Positions 14,434 through 48,188 of a DNA stretch of 48,188 nucleotides are shown here, in pieces. Each line of letters begins with the position of its first letter. The first letter of the stretch is position 1. A program made the position numbers and the translations under genes. The DNA is from an uncultured Micavibrio sp. (lineage in GTDB: Bacteria; Pseudomonadota; Alphaproteobacteria; Micavibrionales; Micavibrionaceae): NCBI GenBank assembly GCA_964570705.1, contig CAZMZK010000001.1:1-48188 (forward strand), in the 5' to 3' direction. The notes under the pieces are model-generated. The model was not told where the DNA came from. It ran no database searches and worked only from the letters and a program-made list of their open reading frames with translations.

Positions 14434-15087
14434 ATGGCACACGACGCGAAATCACGGGACATGCAATCTTTTCAGGCTCCGACCAGTTCCAATTCGGATA
14501 TCAGCTCTATTTTGTTGATGATTCATGCGATGAAAGAGCAAATGGACGGGATGGAGCGGTTCGTCCGTCGTCGGTTTGATGAAATTTCCATGGAAATCAA
14601 CGCGACATCCCAACAGCTGGATATGGCGGAAGAGGGCTTGGCGGGCCGATTCTCTGAAGTCTTGAGCGTGATCTCGGCGATTTCGTTCAGCGGGAACGGA
14701 TTGACGGCTGCCAATACGGGCGTGGAGCTGGAAGCGGTTATTACCGACACCGAAGAAGCGGCCAATAAAATTCTGGATGCCGCCGACCGTATTTCGCAAC
14801 GGATCCGGACGGAAAATCAATTGACGGGTGAAGAGGCACGGAAACGCTTTCTGGAAGAAACGCGTTCCGATGTACAGGATATTCTGATGGCCTGTACGTT
14901 CCAGGATTTGACGGGGCAACGGATTCGCAAAACCTTGGAAAGCCTGCAACTGATTGAAAACAAAATCAGCACGACGCTGGACGAGTTGGGGATCGAGGTC
15001 AAAGTTGATCCTTTGGCGGGCGGTGTTCGGGAATCGACGGAAAACCACGCCCATTCCCAAGCCGATATCGACGCGTTGTTTTCATAG
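14434..15087 (+). CDS. cheZ: CheZ-like CheY-P phosphatase (orphan; no other che genes in the window)
   Basis: 217 aa with the active-site string FQDLTGQRIRK (compare E. coli CheZ DFQDLTGQVI, which carries catalytic D143/Q147) and an acidic C-terminal peptide SQADIDALFS resembling the CheY-docking tail. Confidence 0.75.
   Translation: MAHDAKSRDMQSFQAPTSSNSDISSILLMIHAMKEQMDGMERFVRRRFDEISMEINATSQQLDMAEEGLAGRFSEVLSVISAISFSGNGLTAANTGVELEAVITDTEEAANKILDAADRISQRIRTENQLTGEEARKRFLEETRSDVQDILMACTFQDLTGQRIRKTLESLQLIENKISTTLDELGIEVKVDPLAGGVRESTENHAHSQADIDALFS
15012..15087. repeat. left copy of a ~76-nt direct repeat (the native 3-prime end of cheZ, including TAG)
   Basis: The string ttggcgg..ggtgttcgggaatcgacggaaaaccacgcccattcccaagccgatatcgacgcgttgttttcatag recurs at 15814-15891. 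Confidence 0.85.
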
Positions 15088-15813: not shown

Positions 15814-15891
15814 CCTTGGCGGGGTGGTGTTCGGGAATCGACGGAAAACCACGCCCATTCCCAAGCCGATATCGATGCATTGTTTTCATAG
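15814..15891. repeat. right copy of the ~76-nt direct repeat (second copy of the cheZ 3-prime end)
   Basis: It differs from 15012-15087 by one 1-nt indel near the 5-prime edge and two substitutions (gac to gat, gcg to gca). Both substitutions are synonymous in the cheZ frame, and the copy ends with the same TAG. Confidence 0.85.
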
Positions 15892-31186: not shown

Positions 31187-32065
31187 TTAATGGAGCAATT
31201 CAAGGCCAGCAGGGCGACCAGCTTTCGAAAGATCTGGACGAGGCATCATTGGATCAACATAGCTGGATTCCTGAACGACATGAATACCCGCCTCCCGCAG
31301 CATAGGCAACATAAAGTCATCTGTCTTCCGGAACCCCTCCAGAATCAATAGGGCATGAGGGCATAGGCGAGAGATGGCCCAAATATGATGTATAGCTATT
31401 TCTGCATCCAACAGATCTCGTTTTTCTCCAGTGCTCACTGCTTTCCTGAAACGAGCAGCCATATGATGATCAAATTTGATGGCATCAATAAATGCAAAAA
31501 TGCCAAGACTCTCTAACTCCCGCCAAGAAAAAGGATCGATATCATCCAAAGCAATACTAATCCCCATTTCCTTTAAGCGCGCAAGAACTTTAGGATTATA
31601 TTCTGGTGGAATGCGACTGTGACCATCCATTTTTGCTTCCGAAATTTCGAACATAACCCTCTGTGGATCATGCTCAATTTTTTCTAAGACTTTTATCAAT
31701 CCTTTACTATAGGCGGTTCGCGAACAAAGATTGATACTAACCCCTTCTTTATATTGCAGAGATTTTGGTAATGCCTTTTCGAGAAGAATAGCATCAACTT
31801 CTGCGTCTAAACCAAGTCGATGACAATTTTTATAGAAATCCTCAACCGAGCCATTCGCAACAATCCGGAGACTCTCTTTCTCAGGCTTATTCAAAATCTC
31901 ACAATGTGGAATACCAACCGACTTTGGCGGAAGAAGAGCCCCTTCTATAAGAACAAAATCCTCAGAACTCGAAGTGCTAAATTGAACACCCTCAAGAATA
32001 TGCTCTCGCATTCCCAGCCAAGCATTCTCTGAAATACTTAAAAAATCTTGACTGCAACTTCCCAT
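31187..32065 (-). CDS. stand-alone divergent EAL-domain protein (putative c-di-GMP phosphodiesterase)
   Basis: The EAL-domain landmarks appear in the right order: CEILNK (EAL), VSINL (N), FEISE (ExxE), IALDDIDPF (DDFGTG position, divergent), IKFD (KxD), ILEGF (EGVE position) and VVQE (QG position). Ends 18 nt upstream of radA. Confidence 0.6.
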   Translation of the reverse strand: MGSCSQDFLSISENAWLGMREHILEGVQFSTSSSEDFVLIEGALLPPKSVGIPHCEILNKPEKESLRIVANGSVEDFYKNCHRLGLDAEVDAILLEKALPKSLQYKEGVSINLCSRTAYSKGLIKVLEKIEHDPQRVMFEISEAKMDGHSRIPPEYNPKVLARLKEMGISIALDDIDPFSWRELESLGIFAFIDAIKFDHHMAARFRKAVSTGEKRDLLDAEIAIHHIWAISRLCPHALLILEGFRKTDDFMLPMLREAGIHVVQESSYVDPMMPRPDLSKAGRPAGLELLH

Positions 32066-37974: not shown

Positions 37975-38616
37975 TTACTGGCTGACCCAGACAATACGCG
38001 ATATCCACAAAATGTCCTTGGCTGCTAGAATGTCATCGCCTTCGGCCGGAGGCAACGATTTTAATTCGACTTTGCCACCTGTCTGGCGTGCCAATTCCTT
38101 GGCGTGCAATGCGCCACTGATGGTTTTGACAACCACACGATCCCCGCGCCGTACAGGGGCGTTTGGGGCGATAATCAACCGATCGCCTTCGCGAAACAAT
38201 GGCAACATCCCATTTCCTGTCACTTCCAGCGCATACATCATCAGGCCCTCATCGGGGGCATAAGGGAAATGGATATAATCCCACCCTTCTCCCTTGGGAT
38301 TGCCGGATTCATCAAACACATCGCTGTGTTCGGCCTGATGGGTGGCGATGACCGGAATGCGCGAATGGGTGCGGACGGTTGTGGATGCGGTGCTGATCAA
38401 CCCGATAAAATCGGCCATGCTGGAATTCGTGGCACTCAGGATGCGGGCGATACTCTCGGTAGATGGCCAGCGTGGCTTGCCATCTGCGCCAATTCGTTTG
38501 CTGCGGTTGAACGATGTCGGATCCAGTCCTGCTTTTTTGGCAAGACCCGATGTGGAGTAACCGCAACTTTGCGCCAGACGATCAATCGCTAGCCAGATAG
38601 TGTCGTGTGTCAGCAT
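37975..38616 (-). CDS. HTH + S24 (LexA/CI-like) domain regulator with the catalytic Ser replaced by Gly
   Basis: ATG at 38616 gives MLTHDTIWLAIDRLAQSCGYSTSGLAKKAGLDPTSFNRSKR (HTH). The C-terminal S24 fold has VTGNGMLPLF where LexA, CI and UmuD have G-(D/N/M)-S-M. The Lys context ALHAKEL is retained. Confidence 0.8.
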   Translation of the reverse strand: MLTHDTIWLAIDRLAQSCGYSTSGLAKKAGLDPTSFNRSKRIGADGKPRWPSTESIARILSATNSSMADFIGLISTASTTVRTHSRIPVIATHQAEHSDVFDESGNPKGEGWDYIHFPYAPDEGLMMYALEVTGNGMLPLFREGDRLIIAPNAPVRRGDRVVVKTISGALHAKELARQTGGKVELKSLPPAEGDDILAAKDILWISRIVWVSQ

Positions 38617-38678
38617 GATGTTCCTAGTATCGCATAAGTCTTTAATCCTAGATATAGGAAAAAAATCATAAATTTTTC

Positions 38679-38707
38679 TTGACAGGAGCAAAAAGAGTCG
38701 GTATCAA
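38679..38707 (+). promoter_or_regulatory. candidate sigma70-type promoter for the rightward phage operon
   Basis: TTGACA (38679-38684), 17 nt, TATCAA (38702-38707), in the divergent intergenic region. The nearby tcctagtat and tcctagatat repeats (38622-38656) could be operator half-sites. Confidence 0.3.
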
Positions 38708-38793
38708 TGAGAACATAAAGGGAACAATTGTAACTTTTTTCAGGTTTTGTGCCGGTTACGCTGTTCCGCAACTCTTCTGGGGACTTAATTATA

Positions 38794-39206
38794 TGACAAC
38801 GTTCAAGACGATCACAGGGTCGCCGTTGCTGACGGCTGACGACACGATTCCATTCAAATCAGCCGAAGAAGCCTGGTTCTGGTTCATTCAGGCGCAAACT
38901 GCCCGCAACGAGGGCGCAAAAATCACGGCCGGAGCCGGATTATATGCGCGCCCCTGTGAGCCGGTAGATATTATTCAGGCGCTGGAGCGCCTGTATCGTC
39001 ATCGCCGTGTGACCATGGATCATGTGATGATTTTGCGTCATTATGGCCAGCGATCTCTCTCGCCTGACCCGCGCCGCCCCAAAGAAAAACGCGCTTATGG
39101 TTTGTGGAAAGAGGCTTTGGAAAAACTCGAAGATGTTTTGGTCACCAAACGTATTGTGGTGCGTCCTCATTGGATCCGCTTGGTGTGTAACAATGATGCC
39201 GGATGA
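38794..39206 (+). CDS. hypothetical phage-associated protein
   Basis: 137 aa from ATG 38794 (MTTFKTITGSP..; FKSAEEAWFWFIQAQTARNEG ... LYRHRRVTMDHVMILRHYG). First gene of the rightward operon. Function unknown. Confidence 0.5.
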
Positions 39207-39567
39207 AATTCTGGTGGTCTTTACCGACCAGACGGATCTGTGGTGGCTCACATGTTTGCGCCGCGGATTCCGTCATTGCTTTGTTCTGCTCCGCTTTGCG
39301 GATGTATGGATATGTGTTGATGCCTTGGCGCATAAGACCGAAGTCATGCGTCTGGATTTGCCGGATGGGTTCCATTTGAAAGATTGGTTCGAACATCAGG
39401 GAGATCGGGTGATTTCTGTCCCTGTGCCTCTGTCATCCGCGACACCAAAAATTTTATGGCCGGCGGCTTTTAGTTGCGTGGAAAGTGTCAAACGCATTCT
39501 GGGAGTACGGTCATTTTTTATTCTCACGCCGTGGCAACTTTTTCGCCATCTGCAGTCTTTAACCTGA
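39193..39567 (+). CDS. hypothetical phage-associated protein
   Basis: 124 aa from ATG 39193 (MMPDEILVVF..). 14-nt overlap with the previous gene. No recognisable domain. Confidence 0.45.
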   Translation: MMPDEILVVFTDQTDLWWLTCLRRGFRHCFVLLRFADVWICVDALAHKTEVMRLDLPDGFHLKDWFEHQGDRVISVPVPLSSATPKILWPAAFSCVESVKRILGVRSFFILTPWQLFRHLQSLT

Positions 39568-39585
39568 AAGGATACCATCACTATC

Positions 39586-39834
39586 ATGGGAAGCATTACG
39601 TCACGCCCCAAAATTCCTACGGCGGCCGCTGTGGTAACTCCACAAACAACGGAGTCCAGCTCCGCCGTCACGACATCGCCAACCGTGGCCAGTCCGGACG
39701 AGGTTGCCAAATCCCGCGTCGAGACTGTTTTGCGCCGATCGCGTAGCGTTCTGGGGAACGTCTTAACCAGCTATCGCGGTCTTTTGAATGAAAACAGCAC
39801 TGCGCCACAACGCAAATCCTTGTTGGGAGAATAA
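39586..39834 (+). CDS. hypothetical small phage protein
   Basis: 82 aa, low-complexity T/S/A-rich centre, ends RKSLLGE. Its N-terminus MGSITS resembles the MGSLTS N-terminus of the 47588 gene. Confidence 0.45.
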   Translation: MGSITSRPKIPTAAAVVTPQTTESSSAVTTSPTVASPDEVAKSRVETVLRRSRSVLGNVLTSYRGLLNENSTAPQRKSLLGE

Positions 39835-39837
39835 TCC

Positions 39838-41316
39838 ATGTCCGAAGATCTGAATCAGTTGCTGGCGCGAAAATTTCGTGCAGCAAAATCACAACACGAC
39901 CAATGGCAAGGGGTGTGGCGGGATTGCTATGATTACGCGCTCCCCCAATGTAGCTCCTATCTCTCCGGAAGTGGTGCGGTCAATCGGCGCAGTGAATCGT
40001 TGTACGATGGGACAGCGCTCGATTCGGTGGATCAATTGGCCAGTCTGTTATTGGGCAATGTGACGCCACCATTGACTCCCTGGTTTGGATTAAAAGCCGG
40101 AACCGATTTGACACCGGATGAAGCCAAGGCGATTGCGCCTGCGCTTGAGAAAGCGACACGTTTGTTGCAGGCCCATTTTGATCAATCGAATTTTATTGTC
40201 GAGATTCATCAATGTTTTCTGGATCTGGTTGTCGCTGGAACCGCGTCTTTGGTATTTGAAGAGGCGGATATTGGCGAATTATCTGCCTTTCATTTTATGG
40301 CCAATCCGTTGAGCGACATCGTGATGGATGAAAGCGCACATGGCAAGCTGGATACGGTGTTTCGTTCCATCGCATTAACCCTGCCCCAGATTCTGGCGCG
40401 GTATGAGGGCGCGGATATACCGTTATCTTTATTGCACACAGGAAATCGTCATCCGGATGAAACCTTTCCGTTGATGGAGGTTGTCACAAAACATCCGGAC
40501 GGGCATGGATATCTCTTTGCTTTATGTGATCCGGACACGCTCGAGATCATCTATCAAAGCACGTTGCCGCAATCGCCGTTTATCAATTTCCGTTGGATGA
40601 AATCTCCGGGGGAAATTTATGGGCGGTCTCCGGTGATGAAGGCATTGCCGGATATTAAAACCGCCAACAAAGTTGTCGAATTGATCCTGAAAAATGCGTC
40701 GATTTCGGTCACTGGGATTTGGCAGGCCGAAGATGATGGTGTGTTAAATTTGTCCAATATTGAATTGGTTCCCGGCGCTATTATTCCAAAAGCCATAGGG
40801 TCCAAAGGTTTGACGCCGTTGGAGATGCCCGCACGGTTTGATGTATCGCAATTGGTGTTGAGCGATTTGCGCGGGCGCATTCGTCATGCGTTGTTGGCTG
40901 ATCGTTTGCCGCAGATAAGTGATGCTGGCCGCGCTACGGCCACCGAAATTACGTTGCGATCGAACGAGATGACGTTGCTTTTGGGGGCCACATTCGGGCG
41001 TTTGCAAGTCGAATTGTTGAACCCGTTATTGCAGCGGGCGTATCAGATTTTGCGCAAGCGCGGTGTGATTCCCGATTTACCGCTGGATGGGCGGGTGGTT
41101 GCGATTGATTACCGATCGCCGTTGGCCCGTGCGCAATCATCGCAAACAGTGCAGCAGGCTTTAGGCTGGATACAGGCTGCCACCAGTCTCGGCCCCGATA
41201 TTGTGGCGCAAATCAATCGTCCGGCGATGATGGCCTACCTGACCGAGATGTTGGGTGTGCCGGATTTCCTGACACAACCTGACTCATCTTTCATTATTCC
41301 AACAAAAGGAGACTAA
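39838..41316 (+). CDS. phage portal (head-to-tail connector, T7 gp8-like)
   Basis: 492 aa with SD gggaga. The N-terminal block (W..VWRDCYDYALPQ ... LYDGTALDSVDQLASLLLGNVTPPLTPWFGL) resembles the podoviral Head-tail_con family. Position before scaffold and capsid supports the call. Confidence 0.8.
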   Translation: MSEDLNQLLARKFRAAKSQHDQWQGVWRDCYDYALPQCSSYLSGSGAVNRRSESLYDGTALDSVDQLASLLLGNVTPPLTPWFGLKAGTDLTPDEAKAIAPALEKATRLLQAHFDQSNFIVEIHQCFLDLVVAGTASLVFEEADIGELSAFHFMANPLSDIVMDESAHGKLDTVFRSIALTLPQILARYEGADIPLSLLHTGNRHPDETFPLMEVVTKHPDGHGYLFALCDPDTLEIIYQSTLPQSPFINFRWMKSPGEIYGRSPVMKALPDIKTANKVVELILKNASISVTGIWQAEDDGVLNLSNIELVPGAIIPKAIGSKGLTPLEMPARFDVSQLVLSDLRGRIRHALLADRLPQISDAGRATATEITLRSNEMTLLLGATFGRLQVELLNPLLQRAYQILRKRGVIPDLPLDGRVVAIDYRSPLARAQSSQTVQQALGWIQAATSLGPDIVAQINRPAMMAYLTEMLGVPDFLTQPDSSFIIPTKGD

Positions 41317-41319
41317 CCT

Positions 41320-42094
41320 ATGACCGATCTGACCCCCACCCAAACCAGTGACAATTTGTTAACCGCCGCCGTTGATGTGAATGACACCGCTGCCCCAGCC
41401 ACGCAAGATCCTGCGAAGCCCGATTCGGTGCCGGATAAATTCTGGGATGCCGACAAAAAAGAAATTCGGGTTGATGCTCTTCTCAATTCGTATCTGGCTC
41501 TTGAACGGCGCGCCTCGAAAATGGTGCCTCTGCCAGAGACAGAAGATGATCGCAAGCGGTTGCAAAAAAATCATGGGGCTCCCTGATACGGCGGATCAAT
41601 ATGATATTACTTTGCACAATGATGTGATTGCGATTGATCCGGAATTGAACGCCCGCTTGCACCAGAAAGGGTTTACCAATGATCAGGTGCAGGAAATTTA
41701 TGATCTGGCCACCGAGAAACTGGTGCCGATGATATTGGATATGGCCGCAGAGTTTCAGGCTGACCGCGAATTGGAACGTTTGGTCAAAGAATTCGGCGGG
41801 CCGGAAAAATGGGATGTCGTCTCCAAACAATTGCAGGAATTTGGTCAGAAAAATCTGCCTGCGTCTGCCTATGACGGGCTTTGTTGTTCATATGACGGCG
41901 TGATGGCGTTATATGCCATGATGAAGTCCGGCGCGAAAAGTCCGATTGCCAAGGATGAGACAACCGCGATTGGCCCGATCGATGAAGCCGGATTAAAACA
42001 GATGATGCAAAATCCGAAATACTGGCGCGAGCGTGATCCTGCCTTTATCGCGCGGGTGAGTGATGGATTCCAGAAGCTGTATGGTGGTCAGTGA
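41320..42094 (+). CDS. phage scaffolding-like protein, reading frame broken at an A7 run (41564-41570)
   Basis: Frame 1 (41320-41586) ends ..RKRLQKNHGAP*. Frame 2 continues IMGLPDTADQYDITLHND.. to 42094. Removing one A gives a continuous 257-aa protein reading ..RKRLQKIMGLPDTADQYDI... SD aaggag. Position between portal and capsid. Confidence 0.6.
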
Positions 42095-42186
42095 GTGTTT
42101 TAGTGATCAGTGATTAGTGGCGAGTGATCAGTTTTATGCAAGGCGTCATCCCGTTGGCGTGTTCCGTTAGGAACGCTTGCACAAAC

Positions 42187-42281
42187 GGGATCCAGAAAAG
42201 AGCGGAAAGCAATGCTTTCCGCACATCATGGATTCCGGCTGTGTGAGTTTTTTCTACGAAAAAACACCGCCGGAATGACGG
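42187..42281. repeat. 95-nt nested-hairpin element, copy 1 (inverted partner at 48051-48145)
   Basis: gggatccagaaaagagcggaaagcaatgctttccgcacatcatggattccggctgtgtgagttttttctacgaaaaaacaccgccggaatgacgg. 91 of 95 positions are identical to the reverse complement of 48051-48145. It is preceded by a gtcatcccgtt..aacgggatcc hairpin (42146-42194). Confidence 0.85.
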
Positions 42282-42300
42282 TCTGCCAGAGCGGTATGAA

Positions 42301-42699
42301 CTAAGCCTGTGATCCGGCGAATTCGCGGGCGTTAAAGTCGTCAATCACGTTCTGGAACGTTTTTCGCATGTCGTTGTTAACCGGCAAGAATTGGAACGAG
42401 ACCGATTCGTTGGATTTGCGCACGACTTTGGCTTTGTGTTTAACGCTGATCAAATTCTCGCGCAGATGGAATTTCAATTCGACATCCATTTCTTCACCAA
42501 GGGCCACAGGGCGGGTATCGGCAAATACCCGCATGCCGCCCGGGCTCCAGTCAAGGATCGGGTGGGCTTTGCCATTGATGAAGCCCACGCACTGGTCGCA
42601 GCTGCGGCGTGGATGAACACGGCGCGAGGCGAAGCCGTCTGTGCCGTCCGAAGAGATCGAATTTTTAAACCCTAATGCAGTCATAATACCCTGCAGCAT
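42301..42699 (-). CDS. single-domain PilZ c-di-GMP receptor (reverse-strand cargo gene between scaffold and capsid)
   Basis: 132 aa with SD taggag 9 nt upstream of the ATG at 42699. The PilZ signature RRVHPRR (RxxxR) ... DWSPGG (D/NxSxxG) is present. Confidence 0.8.
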   Translation of the reverse strand: MLQGIMTALGFKNSISSDGTDGFASRRVHPRRSCDQCVGFINGKAHPILDWSPGGMRVFADTRPVALGEEMDVELKFHLRENLISVKHKAKVVRKSNESVSFQFLPVNNDMRKTFQNVIDDFNAREFAGSQA

Positions 42700-42987
42700 A
42701 ATTTTTGCTCCTAAAACTGTCTATGACAAAAGGCGTAGATTTTGAGTTGTCTACAGATAAAACGCAGCTTTCGTCATCCTATAGTCCGGATCATACACCA
42801 AGACGCCGGACAAAACAATAAAAATATGTTTATGACAATAAATAGTCCTGATTTCCCCAGATAACCGCCTGTTTTCTGCCCGAAAACGGCGGCCTGAGAC
42901 GATACAACACTGCCTTTTCTCTGGCCGGACACGAGAACCGGAGGCAAGGGCATTCCCGTAACCCCCATAACCCAAAAGGATACATAC

Positions 42988-43818
42988 ATGAGTACAGATA
43001 TCAATCTCGCCTTTGTGAAGCAGTTCGAACGTGAAGTGCATGAGGCGTACCAACGGCAAGGGTCCAAATTGCGCGGCGCCGTGCGCGTGATCAACAATGT
43101 AAAAGGATCGTCCGTTGTCTTCCAGAAAGTCGGAAAAGGCACCGCATCCACAAAATCCACCCATGGCATGGTGCCGGTGATGAATGTCAGCCATACCGCC
43201 GTCGAATGCGTGTTGCAGGATTATTACGCCGGTGATTGGGTCGATAAATTGTCCGAGTTGAAGATCAATCACGATGAACGCGCCGTGATTGCGAATGCCG
43301 GAGCCTATGCGCTCGGTCGTAAAACCGATGATCTGATTATCGGTGCGCTTGCCTCTGCAACATCGTTGGTGATTCCGGATGCCAATATCGGCCTGACCCG
43401 CGATAAGGTTCTCTCCGCCTTTGAAAAACTCGGCGGCGCGGACGTGCCGGATGATGGCCAGCGTTTCGCCGTGATCGGGTGGAAGCAATGGAGCGAGTTG
43501 TTGAAAATCCCTGAATTCGCCTCATCCGAATATGTCGGTGCGGATGAATTGCCGTATAAAAATATGCAGGCCAGAAAATGGTTGGGAACCACATGGATTC
43601 CGATGTCGGGCTTGCCCATGGATGGCAATGATATCCGGTCGTGTTTCTGGTTCCACAAAACCGCCATTGGCCATGCGTCGGGGTCGGATGTCCAGTCCGA
43701 TATTACCTGGCACGGCGATCGTGCGGCGCACTTTGTCAACAACATGATGTCCCAAGGGTCGGTGTTGATTGATGGGTCAGGTGTGGTGGTCATCAACTGT
43801 GACGAAACCCCTGATTAG
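42988..43818 (+). CDS. phage major capsid protein
   Basis: 276 aa with SD aaagga. It is in the capsid position after the scaffold. The N-terminal LAFVKQFEREVHEAYQRQGSKLRGAVRV and C-terminal SQGSVLIDGSGVVVI blocks look like a recurrent phage capsid family, judged from memory only and not verified. Confidence 0.7.
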   Translation: MSTDINLAFVKQFEREVHEAYQRQGSKLRGAVRVINNVKGSSVVFQKVGKGTASTKSTHGMVPVMNVSHTAVECVLQDYYAGDWVDKLSELKINHDERAVIANAGAYALGRKTDDLIIGALASATSLVIPDANIGLTRDKVLSAFEKLGGADVPDDGQRFAVIGWKQWSELLKIPEFASSEYVGADELPYKNMQARKWLGTTWIPMSGLPMDGNDIRSCFWFHKTAIGHASGSDVQSDITWHGDRAAHFVNNMMSQGSVLIDGSGVVVINCDETPD

Positions 43819-43927
43819 TGTGTGAGTGAACAGTGATGAGGAATGAGTGGTCGGTCAATCATGATCCATCACTTGTTTCCCCATCCTCTATCTTTTTCAT
43901 GTCCAATTTTTATAAGGAGTACAAAAC

Positions 43928-44170
43928 ATGGCTTTTGCAACAAAAGACCTGAGCGTGTTGGCTTATGCCAATAATTTTACCCTGTGGCATTACACGACGT
44001 TTGATGCGTCGGTTTTAACCGCAGGATATTTCAACTCTGCAGCCAGTATGCTGCGGGTCAATGATCTGATGATTGTGAATCTCGATACAGATGGCACACC
44101 GTCAACAGTCTTTTATATCGTCACCGGAAACACCGGATCTGTCGTGACTGTTGCGACCTTCACCGCGTAA
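43928..44170 (+). CDS. small phage head-associated protein (decoration or accessory candidate)
   Basis: 80 aa with strong SD aaggag. Immediately downstream of the capsid gene. Confidence 0.5.
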   Translation: MAFATKDLSVLAYANNFTLWHYTTFDASVLTAGYFNSAASMLRVNDLMIVNLDTDGTPSTVFYIVTGNTGSVVTVATFTA

Positions 44171-44323
44171 TCACGCCTCCTGCCTTTGTGTGAAGGGTGC
44201 AGGTTTTTCCCTCCTCCTCTGCACCATTCTGTATCGATCCGGAATGGCCGGATATATCCTCCTCCCGCAACGGGATCCGGCCATTCCCCCTTTTTCAAGA
44301 CTCTTTATAACGGAGATTATATT

Positions 44324-44893
44324 ATGGCGTTGAATGATATTGGCCTGTGTGCCCGTGCCTTGGCCCGTGTGGGCGTGCATCCTATTACCTCTTTTGCCGA
44401 TGGAACGGCCGAATCCGAAATTGCGGCCTTGCTGTATCCGCCGTTGCGCGATGCGATTTTATCGTCCTATCCGTGGAGCTTTGCCACGGCGCAAATATCT
44501 TTGACACGGTTGGAGACTGCGCCTGTTGCCGATTATGCCTATGCGTATCAATTGCCGTCCGGTTTCTTGCGGGCGTTATCGGCGGGGATGGGGACGCGCG
44601 GGCGTGGCGTGTCGTATCGTCTGGTGCAAAATCAACTGCACAGCGATGCCAGTGCCATCACGCTGACCTATGTGTATCGCCCCGAGGAAGAAGATTTTCC
44701 ACCCTATTTTGCGTCAGCGGTGATCACGCGATTGGCCGCGGAATTTTGTTTGCCGCTCACCGAGAATACGGCGCGCGCCGAAGCTCTGGCCCGATTGGCG
44801 GATCAAGACCTTATCCGCGCCCGCCAGATTGATGCGCAACAACACAGCCCCAACCGGATCGAGCGCTTCCCGTTGATTGATGCGCGGGAGTAA
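44324..44893 (+). CDS. phage adaptor / tail tubular protein A-like (by position and size)
   Basis: ATG at 44324 with SD ggag gives 189 aa (MALNDIGLCARALARVGVHPITSF..YPWSFATAQ). T7 gp11 is of similar size and occupies the same position. The ORF-track start at 44186 is unlikely. Confidence 0.45.
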   Translation: MALNDIGLCARALARVGVHPITSFADGTAESEIAALLYPPLRDAILSSYPWSFATAQISLTRLETAPVADYAYAYQLPSGFLRALSAGMGTRGRGVSYRLVQNQLHSDASAITLTYVYRPEEEDFPPYFASAVITRLAAEFCLPLTENTARAEALARLADQDLIRARQIDAQQHSPNRIERFPLIDARE

Positions 44894-44904
44894 AAGTTAT
44901 TTGA

Positions 44905-45316
44905 ACCACAGAGGTTTTTTCTTCGCGATCGTCATCCCCCGATTTACTCGGGGGATCCAGAAAAGAAAGTTCTTTCACCACAAAGTGCACGAAGCTCTCG
45001 AAGTTCACGAAGTTTTTGTGTCCATAAAATCCGTGTTCATCTGTGGTCTTTAAGGTCTTTTTCTGGATCCCCCTAGACTGCTGCGCAGTCAGGGGATGCA
45101 GTCAGGGGATGATGTACGGGAAGTAAGAAACCTCTGCGGTCTCTGCGGATTCTTTGCGACCTCTGCGTGTGGCATTCTTTTTTTAACCACGAAGTGCACG
45201 AAGCGCGCGAAGGTGTTTGTGCTTCAGAAATTCCTTCGTGAATTTCGTGGTCTTCGTGGTTCAATTTTACTTTTTTCTGGATCCCCCGAGTAAATCGGGG
45301 GATGACGGGCGGAGGA
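44905..45316. repeat. cluster of nested or degenerate palindromic MITE-like elements
   Basis: gtcatcccccgatttactcgggggatccagaaaag (44931-44965) is inverted at 45270-45306. A related ctggatccccc..gtcaggggatg unit lies at 45063-45111. cacgaag, cttcgtg and ctctgcg short repeats lie in between. Confidence 0.8.
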
Positions 45317-45559
45317 TTAGTTTGTTCCGAAGCCGAGAGCTTGGAACCCATTTTGAATACATCTATCGTTTGCACTATGGAGAAATTTTAATACGTGTGC
45401 TTCAGGGCACTGGAATGCACGAGCGAGGTCACCCTTTGTAAAAAGATTATGATGCAAAGCATCTCTCACAATATCACCGACTGAATGACGATGAGGTTTT
45501 TCACCTGCAGCAAACTGGTTCAATTTCTTACGAATAGATAGTGCATGAGTATCGGTCAT
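45317..45559 (-). CDS. small putative HTH protein (reverse-strand cargo gene)
   Basis: 80 aa with SD gagggg 4-5 nt upstream. It has a helix-turn-helix-like stretch FTKGDLARAFQCPEAHVLKFL. Flanked by AT-rich DNA and the repeat cluster. Confidence 0.45.
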   Translation of the reverse strand: MTDTHALSIRKKLNQFAAGEKPHRHSVGDIVRDALHHNLFTKGDLARAFQCPEAHVLKFLHSANDRCIQNGFQALGFGTN

Positions 45560-45667
45560 TTTCCCCTCTTATTACGTTAAAGTTAATCGAAAATTTCATA
45601 TTTCATAACTTACGCAACCCGCTTTGTCAATATGAAAATATAATCCACCTTACTATCAGGAGAGTTT

Positions 45668-47566
45668 ATGCCCCGCATTCCCACCATTAAAACAACCTTT
45701 ACTGCCGGAGAAGTGTCCCCCGATCTGTTGGGGCGCGGCGATTTGAATGCCTATGACAATGGCGCGTTAAAACTGCGCAATGTCTTTATCCAGCCCACAG
45801 GCGGAGTCGTGCGCCGATCCGGTTTGCGTTATATCGACACGGCGGCCGGAGCCGGTCGTATGGTCGCCTTTGAATTCAATACCGAGCAAACCTATTTGTT
45901 GGTCTTTACGCATTTATCCTGTGCGATCTATGCCAATGATGCGTTGGAGGCGACGTTGGCCACGCCGTGGGCCATCGCCGATATTCCGCAACTGGCATGG
46001 ACGCAAAGTGCCGATACGTTGTTATTGACCCATCCGGATTATGCCCCCCGTAAATTGATCCGGACCAATACGGGCGCATGGGCGATCGGGAATTGGGACT
46101 TTTACACAGCGCAAAACCGGGTGCATCAGCCCATGTATAAATTTGCGCCATCTGCGACAACGGTGACCCCCAGTGCGACCACCGGAACGATTACTGTCAC
46201 CGCGTCCTCCGAGGTGTTCGAGGCAGGGCATGCCGGTACGCGCATGCGGATTGGTAACAAGGAAATTGCGGTGACTGCTGTTTTATCCCCCACCGTCATC
46301 AGTGCCAGCGTGATCGAGCCTTTGCTATCCGTTACGCCGACAGTTGATTGGGACGAGCAAGCCTTTTCGCCTGTGCGCGGCTATCCGGTGACCAGTGCGT
46401 TCCATCAGGATCGTTTGGTGATCGGCGGAAGTCGGGATTTGCCCAATCGTTTGTGGATGTCGCAATCGGGTGATTTGTTCAATTTCGATTTGGGCACAGG
46501 GCTGGATTCGGAATCCATCGAGTTCGGGATTTTCTCGGATCAGGTCAATGCCATTCGTGGCGTATTTTCCGGTCGCCATTTGCAGGTCTTTACCAGCGGG
46601 TCGGAATGGATGGTCACCGGTGATCCGCTCACCCCGTCCACCGTGCAAATCAAACGCCAGACGCGGGTCGGGTCGATGATCCACCGCTATATCGCGCCGA
46701 TTGATGTCGATGGTGCGACGCTTTTTGTGGCGCGCAACGGGCAGGAATTGCGCGAATTTATTTATACCAGCATCGAAGAAGCGTATCAGGCCACCGATAT
46801 TGCGTTACTATCCCACCATATTATTACGACTCCGGTGGATCAGGATTTTGACCAGAAACGCCGTTTGTTGTTTCTGGTGCGGGCCGATGGGAAATTTGCC
46901 ACCCTCACTGTCTATCGCGCGGAATCGGTGGCTGCGTGGACGTTGCATGAGACTGCAGGGCAGGTAATTTCGGTATCGGTCGTGGGCGATCAGGTCTATT
47001 TCCTCATCGTGCGCAACGGAGCCTATGCGATTGAAGTCCTTGATGATCTTGTCCAATTGGATGCGGCTTTGGCGGGCGAGGTCGGGACTCCCGCCACAAT
47101 ATGGGACGGATTATCCCATCTGAACGGGCAGAGTATTTCTCTGGTGGCTGATGGAAAAATCGTGCCGGATCAGGTGGTATCAGGCGGGCAAATCCATCTG
47201 GTCACACCTGCACGCTCGGTGCAGGCCGGATTGCCGTTTACCCATGTGATCGAGCCATTGCCCCCTTCCAATATTTCCGATGTCGGTGCGGCGCGGGCCG
47301 TGCGCTTGGTCGAGGCCACGTTCCGTTTGCGCGATACAGGGGCGCTCAGTCTCGATACCGGACGCGGCCTCAAAGACATTTCACTGCGCCGGATCGGGGC
47401 GGGGGACACGATTCTGGATGCGCCGCCGCCCTTGGTCACCGGAGATATTCGCGTGCGCGCCTATGGATGGAAAAACGACACATCCAAGCCGCTGTGGCGC
47501 ATTGAACAGAGCCAGCCTCTGCCCTTTGCGTTGCTGTCGGTGCAGACGGACATTATTGCCAATTAA
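45668..47566 (+). CDS. phage tail tubular protein B / nozzle-like structural protein (by position)
   Basis: 632 aa with SD aggaga. The N-terminal FTAGEVSPDLLGRGDLNAYDNGALKLRNVFIQPTGGVVRRSG block recurs in podoviral tail proteins as far as I recall, not verified. Occupies the T7 gp12 position. Confidence 0.5.
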   Translation: MPRIPTIKTTFTAGEVSPDLLGRGDLNAYDNGALKLRNVFIQPTGGVVRRSGLRYIDTAAGAGRMVAFEFNTEQTYLLVFTHLSCAIYANDALEATLATPWAIADIPQLAWTQSADTLLLTHPDYAPRKLIRTNTGAWAIGNWDFYTAQNRVHQPMYKFAPSATTVTPSATTGTITVTASSEVFEAGHAGTRMRIGNKEIAVTAVLSPTVISASVIEPLLSVTPTVDWDEQAFSPVRGYPVTSAFHQDRLVIGGSRDLPNRLWMSQSGDLFNFDLGTGLDSESIEFGIFSDQVNAIRGVFSGRHLQVFTSGSEWMVTGDPLTPSTVQIKRQTRVGSMIHRYIAPIDVDGATLFVARNGQELREFIYTSIEEAYQATDIALLSHHIITTPVDQDFDQKRRLLFLVRADGKFATLTVYRAESVAAWTLHETAGQVISVSVVGDQVYFLIVRNGAYAIEVLDDLVQLDAALAGEVGTPATIWDGLSHLNGQSISLVADGKIVPDQVVSGGQIHLVTPARSVQAGLPFTHVIEPLPPSNISDVGAARAVRLVEATFRLRDTGALSLDTGRGLKDISLRRIGAGDTILDAPPPLVTGDIRVRAYGWKNDTSKPLWRIEQSQPLPFALLSVQTDIIAN

Positions 47567-47587
47567 ACCAGTCAGGAGAGATATCAC

Positions 47588-48031
47588 ATGGGAAGTTTAA
47601 CATCATTGGTTACGCCGCTTGCGGCAATGGGAAAATTCGTCACGTCGGGCGTAGAGGCTGCGCAAAGCGTGAACGAGATCAACGCAAAAAACCGTGCATT
47701 GGCGCAGAATGCCGCCCTTCAGAAACAGGCCAATTTGTTGGCCTTGCAACAAAAAGAAACCGATCGGCTGACAAAATTGCAACAAGCCACGGCGACCCAA
47801 CGGGCACATTTCGGGTCACAGGGCATCGGGTCGGCGACCGGATCGTCCGAAGCCGTCCAGCAAGGGATTTTTGAATCGTCCGATATCACGCGGCAACAAA
47901 ACGCGGCCAAAACTGCTCTCGATAACCAGACAATCGACCAAAGTCTGGCATCGCAACAACAGATGAATTTGTTGCAAAAACAACAGGTGAAACAAAAAGC
48001 TGCATTAAGTCTTTTAAGCGCGTTGGGGTAG
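47588..48031 (+). CDS. Q-rich coiled-coil phage protein (internal virion protein candidate)
   Basis: 147 aa with SD aggaga. Q/A/L-rich heptad-like sequence. Occupies the T7 gp13/gp14 position. Confidence 0.45.
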   Translation: MGSLTSLVTPLAAMGKFVTSGVEAAQSVNEINAKNRALAQNAALQKQANLLALQQKETDRLTKLQQATATQRAHFGSQGIGSATGSSEAVQQGIFESSDITRQQNAAKTALDNQTIDQSLASQQQMNLLQKQQVKQKAALSLLSALG

Positions 48032-48050
48032 AGGGAAGAAAACTCTCAAT

Positions 48051-48145
48051 CCGTCATTCCGGCGGTGTTTTTTCGTAGAAAAAACTCACACAGCCGGAAT
48101 CCATGATGTGCGGAAAGCAATGATTTGCGCTCCTTTCTGGATCCC
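48051..48145. repeat. 95-nt nested-hairpin element, copy 2 (inverted relative to 42187-42281)
   Basis: The reverse complement matches 42187-42281 at 91 of 95 positions, with the terminal 70 nt identical. It is followed by a ctggatcccccgatcgcgtcaggggatgac hairpin (48138-48167). Confidence 0.85.
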
Positions 48146-48188
48146 CCGATCGCGTCAGGGGATGACGGGGGGGATGACGTGCGGGGGG

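Follow-up and report, generated by a model that had tools for sequence, protein, structure and literature searches.

The window analysed here comprises positions 1 to 48,188, its full length, of contig CAZMZK010000001.1 from an uncultured Micavibrio sp. (assembly GCA_964570705.1), and its part 37975-48188 carries a cluster of phage-type genes in the order of phage T7. Comparison with related loci shows this part to belong to a domesticated, non-mobile and selected T7-like cluster with predicted packaging and lysis genes of its own, which is a strong candidate for a gene transfer agent (GTA) of a new kind, with a short tail. The reading that we favour, with somewhat better than even confidence, is a domesticated, SOS-controlled, podovirus-derived GTA-like element. 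To our knowledge, the GTA lineages with a known genetic basis go back to a handful of independent domestications, none of them from a T7-like phage. Domesticated phages and GTA-like elements are a known kind, and we rate this T7-like version as new to the searched literature, in which no earlier description of the element was found; the genome paper of M. aeruginosavorus ARL-13 reported no phage.

A preliminary description of the window had listed the open reading frames (ORFs) of 37975-48188 and read them in the T7 order gp8-gp9-gp10-gp11-gp12. All of them were found at the coordinates claimed, their identities are backed by Pfam and PHROG matches, and the matches follow that order over 39838-47566. 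The genes are as follows (coordinates, strand, description; lengths in amino acids, aa).

37975-38616, minus strand: regulator with a helix-turn-helix (HTH) and an S24 domain (CI/LexA-like), 213 aa; PF00717 (Peptidase_S24) 1e-13; phrog_4 'transcriptional repressor'
38793-39206, plus strand: ORF a, 137 aa, first gene of the operon; conserved, helical
39193-39567, plus strand: ORF b, 124 aa; in true phage relatives, found between TerL and portal
39586-39834, plus strand: ORF c, 82 aa, low-complexity; position conserved
39838-41316, plus strand: portal of the T7 gp8 type, 492 aa; PF12236 6e-125; phrog_332
41320-42094, plus strand: scaffold of the T7 gp9 type; PF05396; split by one additional A in an A7 run
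42301-42699, minus strand: PilZ-domain protein, 132 aa; PF07238 1e-9; RxxxR and DxSxxG motifs
42988-43818, plus strand: major capsid protein, 276 aa; PF19821 6e-78; phrog_3437
43928-44170, plus strand: ORF d, 80 aa; phrog_18004 7.5e-11; after the capsid gene in 71 of 73 loci
44324-44893, plus strand: tail tubular protein A of the T7 gp11 type, 189 aa; phrog_394 4e-45
45317-45559, minus strand: 80-aa ORF; variable cargo, not kept even in a 96.7%-identical relative
45668-47566, plus strand: tail tubular protein B (nozzle) of the T7 gp12 type, 632 aa; phrog_376 9e-143
47588-48031, plus strand: ORF e, 147 aa, coiled-coil; present in 69 of 69 loci

The portal, capsid and tail ORFs are intact, as had been claimed; the regulator is indeed divergent from the structural genes and adjoins the housekeeping gene Prx, and its distance from the portal gene, given as about 1.2 kb, was measured as 1.22 kb. 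Good Shine-Dalgarno sites had been claimed for each gene: GGAG-type sites do stand ahead of the structural genes, and ORFs a, b and c have weak sites or none. Of the two reverse-strand genes that had been called cargo, the 45317-45559 ORF is variable cargo, and pilZ is a core gene of the element in Micavibrionales (63 of 66 loci).

The species scan was performed with one genome per species, and individual loci bear numbers with the prefix L. On long contigs the order on the left is regulator (minus strand), a, b, c, portal, an optional Bbp19-like gene, scaffold and pilZ (minus strand), and on the right capsid, d, gp11, gp12, e, fibre, f, TerL, g, endolysin and holin; judged by this order, 37975-48188 is the left two-thirds of the cluster. 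The fibre, terminase and lysis genes, predicted in the preliminary description to lie past the contig end, are present in the relatives. In L001, the relative whose contig is 96.7% identical to the window, e is followed by a 675-aa fibre or spike protein with a pectate-lyase fold and then by small ORFs. TerL matches NF033889 (termin_lrg_T7), in L066 with 436 bits against a cut-off of 150, and also phrog_38; its Walker A motif is kept in 60 of 61 copies. The endolysin and the holin of the relatives belong to PF07486 and to PF11351 ('GTA_holin_3TM'), respectively. The cluster measures 14-18 kb overall and about 17-18 kb in Micavibrionales.

Host genes abut both ends of the cluster, purC, nadK and a phosphoribosyltransferase (PRTase) gene upstream, and an EamA transporter gene, nhaA and icd downstream. 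On the relatives' contigs, which reach 2.4 Mb, the holin or the endolysin gene ends the cluster, and eamA, nhaA, icd or pyrD follows at once. No integrase, excisionase, primase, replication initiator or RNA polymerase was recognisable in about 160 loci. At none of the loci was an integrase or transposase gene found in the cluster or directly at its borders, the adjoining genes being housekeeping genes, and none recognisable as an integrase was found in the window or in the clusters and immediate flanks of the relatives. The earlier statement that no integrase or replication module is visible was borne out in the window and beyond it. The remaining 38 kb of the window consist of housekeeping DNA (photolyase, purF, nuoF/G/H, purK, radA, an EAL protein, an RND pump and Prx), the 48 kb contain no tRNA gene, and the GC content does not change across the junction between host DNA and cluster.

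Departures from the common layout were also observed. L127 (IMG/VR 3300031555_010385) is permuted, with regulator, a, b, f, TerL, g, endolysin and holin first, and portal, scaffold, capsid, d, gp11 and gp12 in the second part. In L020, L060, L068, L075 and L076 the cluster is split at scaffold/pilZ, and DnaK, GuaA or RsmB is encoded upstream of pilZ; in these genomes the portal module must be elsewhere or lost.

Relatives were found in at least 577 species-representative genomes and on at least 585 contigs of IMG/VR. Of the 3569 homologues of the gp12-like protein, the closest are nearly all 630-633 aa long; an exact look-up of the gp12 protein of the window gave no match. The best 80 of the genomes are metagenome-assembled genomes (MAGs) labelled Micavibrio, 'Alphaproteobacteria bacterium' or Pseudobdellovibrionaceae, many on contigs of 0.2-2.4 Mb, and the same gene order, directly flanked by housekeeping genes, is found in about 80 species-level loci. 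Occupancy, counted among loci long enough to show the gene, is 57/63 for portal, 63/66 for PilZ, 67/68 for capsid, 75/76 for gp11, 65/67 for fibre and 57/59 for TerL. The upstream neighbour is nadK in 24 of 42 loci, and the Prx junction of the window is common to L004. Pairwise protein distances of the element genes correlate with those of nadK (rho 0.45-0.80) and of nhaA (0.31-0.65), the value for nadK against nhaA being 0.81; since distance pairs are not independent, this co-divergence was taken as supportive only.

The family extends beyond Micavibrionales. L113 is a distant compact element, the gp12 of which is about 53% identical to that of the window, and its homologues (67-94% identity) are found in cultured Acetobacteraceae, namely Roseomonas, Teichococcus, Siccirubricoccus, Belnapia, Humitalea and Roseicella, and further Craurococcus, Falsiroseomonas, Neoroseomonas, Elioraea and Sediminicoccus. 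R. marmotae and the closed chromosome of Sediminicoccus sp. KRV36 have a cluster of about 14.4 kb, from S24 regulator to endolysin, between host genes, with a common downstream flank (DUF952-EamA-pyrD-HAD); the EamA proteins encoded next to the cluster in Micavibrionales and in Acetobacteraceae share only 26% identity, so that they may or may not mark a common insertion site. Taken together, these comparisons indicate that the cluster is chromosomally fixed and transmitted vertically. Note that MAG OFTM66 has two copies, L014 and L025 (contigs of 289 and 336 kb), each followed by icd, possibly because two related populations were binned together or because a segment was duplicated. Loci L084-L137 are from IMG/VR, where hundreds of chromosomal copies, 12-19 kb long, are entered as viral contigs or as prophages, which is likely a systematic misclassification by virus-prediction pipelines.

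The close pair formed by the window and L001 was used for dN/dS because dS is saturated between species. Over ten comparable genes, 155 synonymous and 28 non-synonymous differences give a dN/dS of 0.054 at a dS of 0.10, and a, b, c, pilZ and e have low values individually. Median cross-species identity is 74% for capsid, 68% for gp11, 67% for gp12 and 62% for portal, against 56% for nadK, 54% for nhaA and 67% for icd among the flanking host genes. The cluster is therefore under strong purifying selection and is not decaying. Synteny together with a dN/dS well below 1 had been proposed beforehand as a check, and the conserved locus and the value obtained favour domestication. No recognisable integrase or replication module follows in the relatives, and the cluster is present in close relatives without relaxed selection; domestication, one of the options of the preliminary description, withstands both checks. 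Its version of that option was a structural-only GTA-like element, of which the domesticated and GTA-like part stands; 'structural-only' does not, because the cluster has its own terminase and lysis genes in the relatives.

The control region between the regulator and ORF a contains the following features.

38646-38659, no strand assigned: palindrome TCCTAGATATAGGA, upstream of the -35 element; the same palindrome in 10 of 35 aligned intergenic regions
38679-38707, plus strand: sigma-70-like promoter of the a-b-c-portal operon (TTGACA, 17 nt, TATCAA); conserved
38711-38725, plus strand: GAACATAAAGGGAAC, a GAAC-N7-GAAC direct repeat; starts 3 nt past the -10 element; the sole match in the 48-kb window

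Of 52 loci, 47 have the GAAC-N7-GAAC box ahead of gene a (expected, 0.007 per locus), and in nearly all loci TTGAC lies at a fixed distance of 31-32 nt from it. A scan for consensus promoters left this conserved promoter unlisted, since its -10 element ends in A, and gave no excess of promoters or terminators. The Acetobacteraceae-type elements also have the box, in the opposite orientation. GAAC-N7-GAAC (GTTC-N7-GTTC) is the SOS box reported for Caulobacter (PMC9578287); the motif at the promoter fits this alphaproteobacterial LexA box, which may or may not be the one used by the Micavibrionales LexA. Control of the cluster thus probably includes the host LexA. The palindrome TCCTAGATATAGGA, in the place of which other loci have TAGGA-N6-TCCTA, is a candidate operator of the element's own repressor, and either this repressor or the host LexA, or the two together, may repress the operon.

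The N-terminal 75-aa HTH of the regulator is 65-75% conserved across loci, and its C-terminus is variable, being in most loci an S24 domain with a Ser-Lys dyad and an Ala-Gly site. In an alignment of 16 orthologues with Escherichia coli LexA, 11 of the 17 orthologues aligned have G-D-S-M/L, and most of these have AQAG. The window regulator has GNGM instead of GDSM, the nucleophilic Ser being replaced by Gly, and QAE in place of the Ala-Gly cleavage site; the regulators of its closest relatives, L004 and L006, likewise lack this cleavage site. Because both the S24 Ser and the Ala-Gly site are lost, the window repressor is probably not cleavable in the RecA-dependent manner. Lambda CI and LexA repressors have the same HTH and S24 architecture, and most orthologues retain the dyad and the cleavage site, whereas the window copy lacks the Ser and the Ala-Gly; a further difference is that S24 is swapped for a PRTase fusion in about 20 species and that the HTH stands alone in one.

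In those species of the fusion type, the 75-aa HTH is joined in frame to the neighbouring pyrE-like PRTase and S24 is absent, the two being separate genes elsewhere. An example is L041:2042-3034 (minus strand); the others are L017, L019, L021, L025, L029, L031, L033, L038 and L039, and also L042, L043, L058, L063, L069, L071, L074 and L081. By its domain content, the fusion appears to be a PurR-like architecture born at the border of the element. The HTH alone (76 aa) was found in L003.

The PilZ protein of the window has RRVHPRR and DWSPGG, and both cyclic di-GMP (c-di-GMP) motifs are kept in 69 of 70 orthologues, so that by its motifs it is a predicted c-di-GMP receptor. An EAL-domain gene (c-di-GMP phosphodiesterase type) lies at window positions 31187-32065 on the minus strand, 10 kb from pilZ.

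Among the small genes, the ORF a family was found in 49 of 62 loci and has 667 homologues. ORFs a, b, c and e have no match in NCBIfam, Pfam or PHROGs, profile searches with a and b against PDB sequences gave nothing or noise only, and the AlphaFold2 model of ORF a (pLDDT 80) has no fold match in PDB or BFVD by Foldseek. ORF e occupies the slot of a small internal virion protein in the phage relatives, and its profile weakly matches a phrog_418-type internal protein of about 160 aa (hhalign 54%, E 1e-4).

Among isolated phages, pelagiphages and a Methylophilales phage come closest, with portal identities of 30-36%. IMG/VR contigs with a gp12 of at least 45% identity have the same compact layout of 12-19 kb, the distant ones lacking PilZ. 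Contigs with a gp12 of at most 40% identity are of phage type: they have TerL, b, portal, scaffold, capsid, gp11 and gp12, then ORFs of about 160, 545, 1327 and 897 aa ('internal virion protein' PHROG), and then the fibre. The compact elements have no large internal core or ejectosome proteins (gp14-16 type) between nozzle and fibre, where e stands alone, and no phage RNA polymerase or DNA-metabolism genes upstream of the portal gene, where the regulator and three small ORFs are followed by host genes. In a midpoint-rooted neighbour-joining tree of gp12, all compact elements group in a single clade (140 tips), to which the phage-type L140 is sister; the tree carries no support values, and it suggests that the ejectosome and replication modules were lost once. 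L140 (IMG/VR 3300005670_000020, 33.9 kb), which has ORFs of the size of large internal proteins, is a candidate for the closest surviving true-phage relative. In summary, the element has in common with T7-like podoviruses (the pelagiphage and Methylophilales relatives, L140 and L144-L163) homologous portal, scaffold, capsid, gp11, gp12 and fibre N-terminus, the T7-type TerL and the gp8-gp12 order; the phages have internal virion proteins of 545-1327 aa and more upstream genes, both of which the element lacks, and unlike them the element is non-mobile and has gained PilZ and the SOS-box promoter.

The element resembles RcGTA of Rhodobacter capsulatus, the type I GTA of Alphaproteobacteria, in being a phage-derived head-tail-terminase cluster of about 15 kb in Alphaproteobacteria that is chromosomally fixed, vertically inherited and under purifying selection, without integrase or replication genes and with the same holin family (PF11351) and an endolysin. 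RcGTA is a long-tailed HK97-type particle, whereas the element is predicted to be short-tailed, with portal, scaffold, nozzle and TerL of the T7 type. The two also differ in control, which in RcGTA is by CtrA/GafA and in the element by the predicted SOS box and a CI-like repressor; input from c-di-GMP is plausible for RcGTA and likewise for the element. A homologue of RcGTA is ruled out by PF12236, PF19821, the T7 scaffold, gp11/gp12 and the T7-type TerL, the holin family alone being common to both. Large RcGTA clusters are reported to be absent from Rhodospirillales and Micavibrio (PMC5721377), and the distributions of the two look complementary. The GTA-like element FpGTA of Faecalibacterium prausnitzii, described in 2026 by its authors as the first podovirus-like one, lacks replication functions, its podovirus-like nature is inferred, and packaging is supported by experiment (PMC12946183). 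The likeness to our element, podovirus-like and without replication functions, is one of description. FpGTA belongs to Firmicutes and has two loci and experimental support for packaging, whereas ours, a T7-derived element of Alphaproteobacteria, occupies one locus in most genomes and is predicted from its genes to form particles.

GTAs (viriforms) are characterized by caudovirus-derived particle genes, vertical transmission and selective maintenance, by particles that hold at most part of their own locus and mostly random host DNA, and by induction in a subpopulation with lysis (PMC9662315). Vertical transmission is indicated here by locus and order in about 80 species and by co-divergence with the flanks, and selection by the dN/dS of 0.054. 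In the mechanism that we propose, the genes from a to holin would be held off by the local repressor and by the host LexA bound to GAAC-N7-GAAC over the transcription start. DNA damage would derepress the operon in some of the cells, c-di-GMP being a possible additional input through PilZ. Derepressed cells would build podovirus-like heads, the terminase would fill these with chromosomal DNA, and the cells would lyse; the particles would then deliver DNA to kin, which is the lifestyle of a GTA. Particle production, packaged content, SOS induction and DNA transfer are in this sense predictions from the gene content and the promoter region.

Several points weigh against the GTA-like, SOS-controlled reading. 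The fibre, terminase and lysis genes of the window copy are inferred from relatives (96.7% nucleotide and 77% amino-acid identity), its scaffold gene has a possible frameshift, and its repressor looks non-cleavable. GAAC-N7-GAAC could be the site of the element's own repressor instead of that of LexA. The between-species dN/dS ratios of 0.11-0.44 are upper bounds at saturated dS, the distance pairs are non-independent, and icd distances correlate with nothing. A T7-like T=7 capsid, if kept, could hold the entire cluster of 14-18 kb, which does not fit particles that carry only part of their locus. T7-type terminases normally need concatemers with specific ends, so that a start on the chromosome is hard to account for, and the loss of the ejectosome proteins leaves the delivery route unexplained.

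In the relatives, 245 non-core ORFs are found in a few slots, gp11/gp12 (57) and e/fibre (38), then fibre/f, d/gp11 and gp12/e. Insertions are thus commonest in the gp11/gp12 spacer, which in the window holds repeats and the unconserved 80-aa reverse ORF. Among the cargo are polymorphic-toxin-like proteins, namely a PG_binding_1-MuF-colicin E5 nuclease with an immunity gene and fusions of PG_binding_1 to lysozyme or SLT, and further RTX-repeat proteins, HipA and an M50 protease. Toxin-like proteins, RTX-repeat proteins and HipA lie in slots between the tail genes at the following positions.

L003:7466-8875
L055:12523-13998
L056:6722-7891
L079:16490-17716
L003:11900-13303, minus strand

This toxin cargo and the predatory lifestyle of cultured Micavibrio make a domesticated particle for killing or effector delivery the main rival, which we nevertheless regard as unlikely. 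Such a particle would be a PBSX-like bacteriocin or a vehicle for peptidoglycan-targeting enzymes or toxins, with prey as targets in predatory Micavibrio, and DNA packaging would be needed merely for head stability. The model for it is PBSX, a defective phage with a fixed place in the chromosome, which is induced by SOS, fills its particles with host DNA and leaves the cell by lysis; PBSX itself is contractile-tailed and an unrelated element of the Gram-positive Bacillus. Recurrent same-strand cargo in the tail-gene slots (PG_binding_1-lysozyme/SLT, colicin E5 with immunity, RTX, HipA), the loss of the large ejectosome proteins, the depolymerase-like pectate-lyase fold of the fibre and the many Micavibrio-like hosts (cultured Micavibrio being an epibiotic predator) all speak for this rival. 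The cargo is, however, variable and absent from the window and from the Acetobacteraceae copies, while the conserved part is the core set including an intact T7-type terminase; non-predatory Roseomonas relatives carry the element too.

A selfish, immobile or helper-dependent element is considerably less probable. It would be a prophage that can no longer leave the chromosome and packages DNA from there, as in lateral transduction, or a satellite dependent for replication and ejection on a T7-like phage in the same cell. This would suit the full head-tail-terminase-lysis set with its CI-type repressor, a cluster that fits its own capsid if T=7, the many copies classed as viral by IMG/VR and the permuted L127. 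Against it stand the fixed locus that co-diverges with its flanks, conservation at or above that of the housekeeping neighbours, and the lack of any recognisable integrase, excisionase, primase or replication-initiator gene in about 160 loci. Satellites normally have no full tail, and a capsid-forming satellite is ruled out by the full tail and by the absence of integrase and primase.

The preliminary description had offered as its other option a decaying prophage remnant, without present function. The scaffold frameshift, the repeats in the spacers described below, the lost cleavage residues of the repressor and the five loci split at scaffold/pilZ could be taken in its favour. The frameshift is, however, a single base in an A-run and is not found in the nearest relative, the large ORFs are intact, the dN/dS is 0.05 in the same lineage, and the locus is conserved in hundreds of species; a remnant is contradicted by these selection and distribution data, and we give it very little credence. 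Least probable of all is an ordinary temperate T7-like prophage with integrase, replication and early genes past the contig end, for which one could cite the window stopping inside the cluster and the CI-like repressor at its left edge, and which is contradicted by the host genes on both sides of the relatives' clusters (contigs up to 2.4 Mb), by the lack of a tRNA gene in the window and by the lack of a recognisable integrase in the window or in the relatives' clusters and immediate flanks.

The scaffold gene and the spacers of the window copy have features of their own. The scaffold has A7 at 41564-41570, where L001, with an intact scaffold of 257 aa, has A6. The frameshift noted in the preliminary description is one additional A in a homopolymer and is not present in the nearest relative; it may be a sequencing error. 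The repeats are as follows.

42187-42281, no strand assigned: 95-nt repeat unit with a terminator-like hairpin, directly downstream of pilZ; inverted copy at 48051-48145
44930-45307, no strand assigned: palindromic repeats resembling miniature inverted-repeat transposable elements (MITE-like), in the gp11/gp12 spacer
48051-48172, no strand assigned: repeat copies at the contig end

Two of the copies carry terminator-like hairpins. These palindromic repeats had been described as 'host-type'; BLAST finds them solely in spacers of the element and nowhere in the 38 kb of host DNA of the window, which lends that description no support. In L001 they lie at 3.7, 6.5, 9.5-10.0, 12.3 and 13.6-13.8 kb, and none was found in the loci of other species, so that they are restricted to the element spacers of this lineage. 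All nine public contigs with the exact e protein of the window end right behind e, and the repeat copies at 48051-48172 probably explain why the assembly stopped at 48188. In the housekeeping part of the window, a CheZ-like ORF has at its 3' end a 78-nt direct repeat (15010-15087 and 15814-15891; 92% identical, 804 nt apart), which lies in DNA of low GC content (0.42).

A wider reading, which we offer tentatively and hold to be possible but doubtful, is that the element would be a second major, independently exapted GTA lineage of Alphaproteobacteria, going back to a single domestication of a T7-like podovirus, wired to SOS and filling the deep orders without RcGTA (Micavibrionales, Acetobacteraceae/Rhodospirillales). 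In predatory Micavibrio, a swappable peptidoglycan-binding toxin or enzyme cargo would have replaced the ejectosome, and one particle would serve both DNA exchange and effector delivery.

For annotation, the finding means that hundreds of loci labelled viral in IMG/VR are apparently host genes. If the interpretation as a GTA is true, the element would be a new GTA lineage, clade-wide and selected, in at least 577 species-level genomes and in many cultured strains of the Roseomonas group, and it would explain the gap at the 'GTA-less' deep branches of the Alphaproteobacteria. The cultured carriers would open to study how a podovirus does without its ejectosome and how a domesticated virus is wired to SOS and c-di-GMP.

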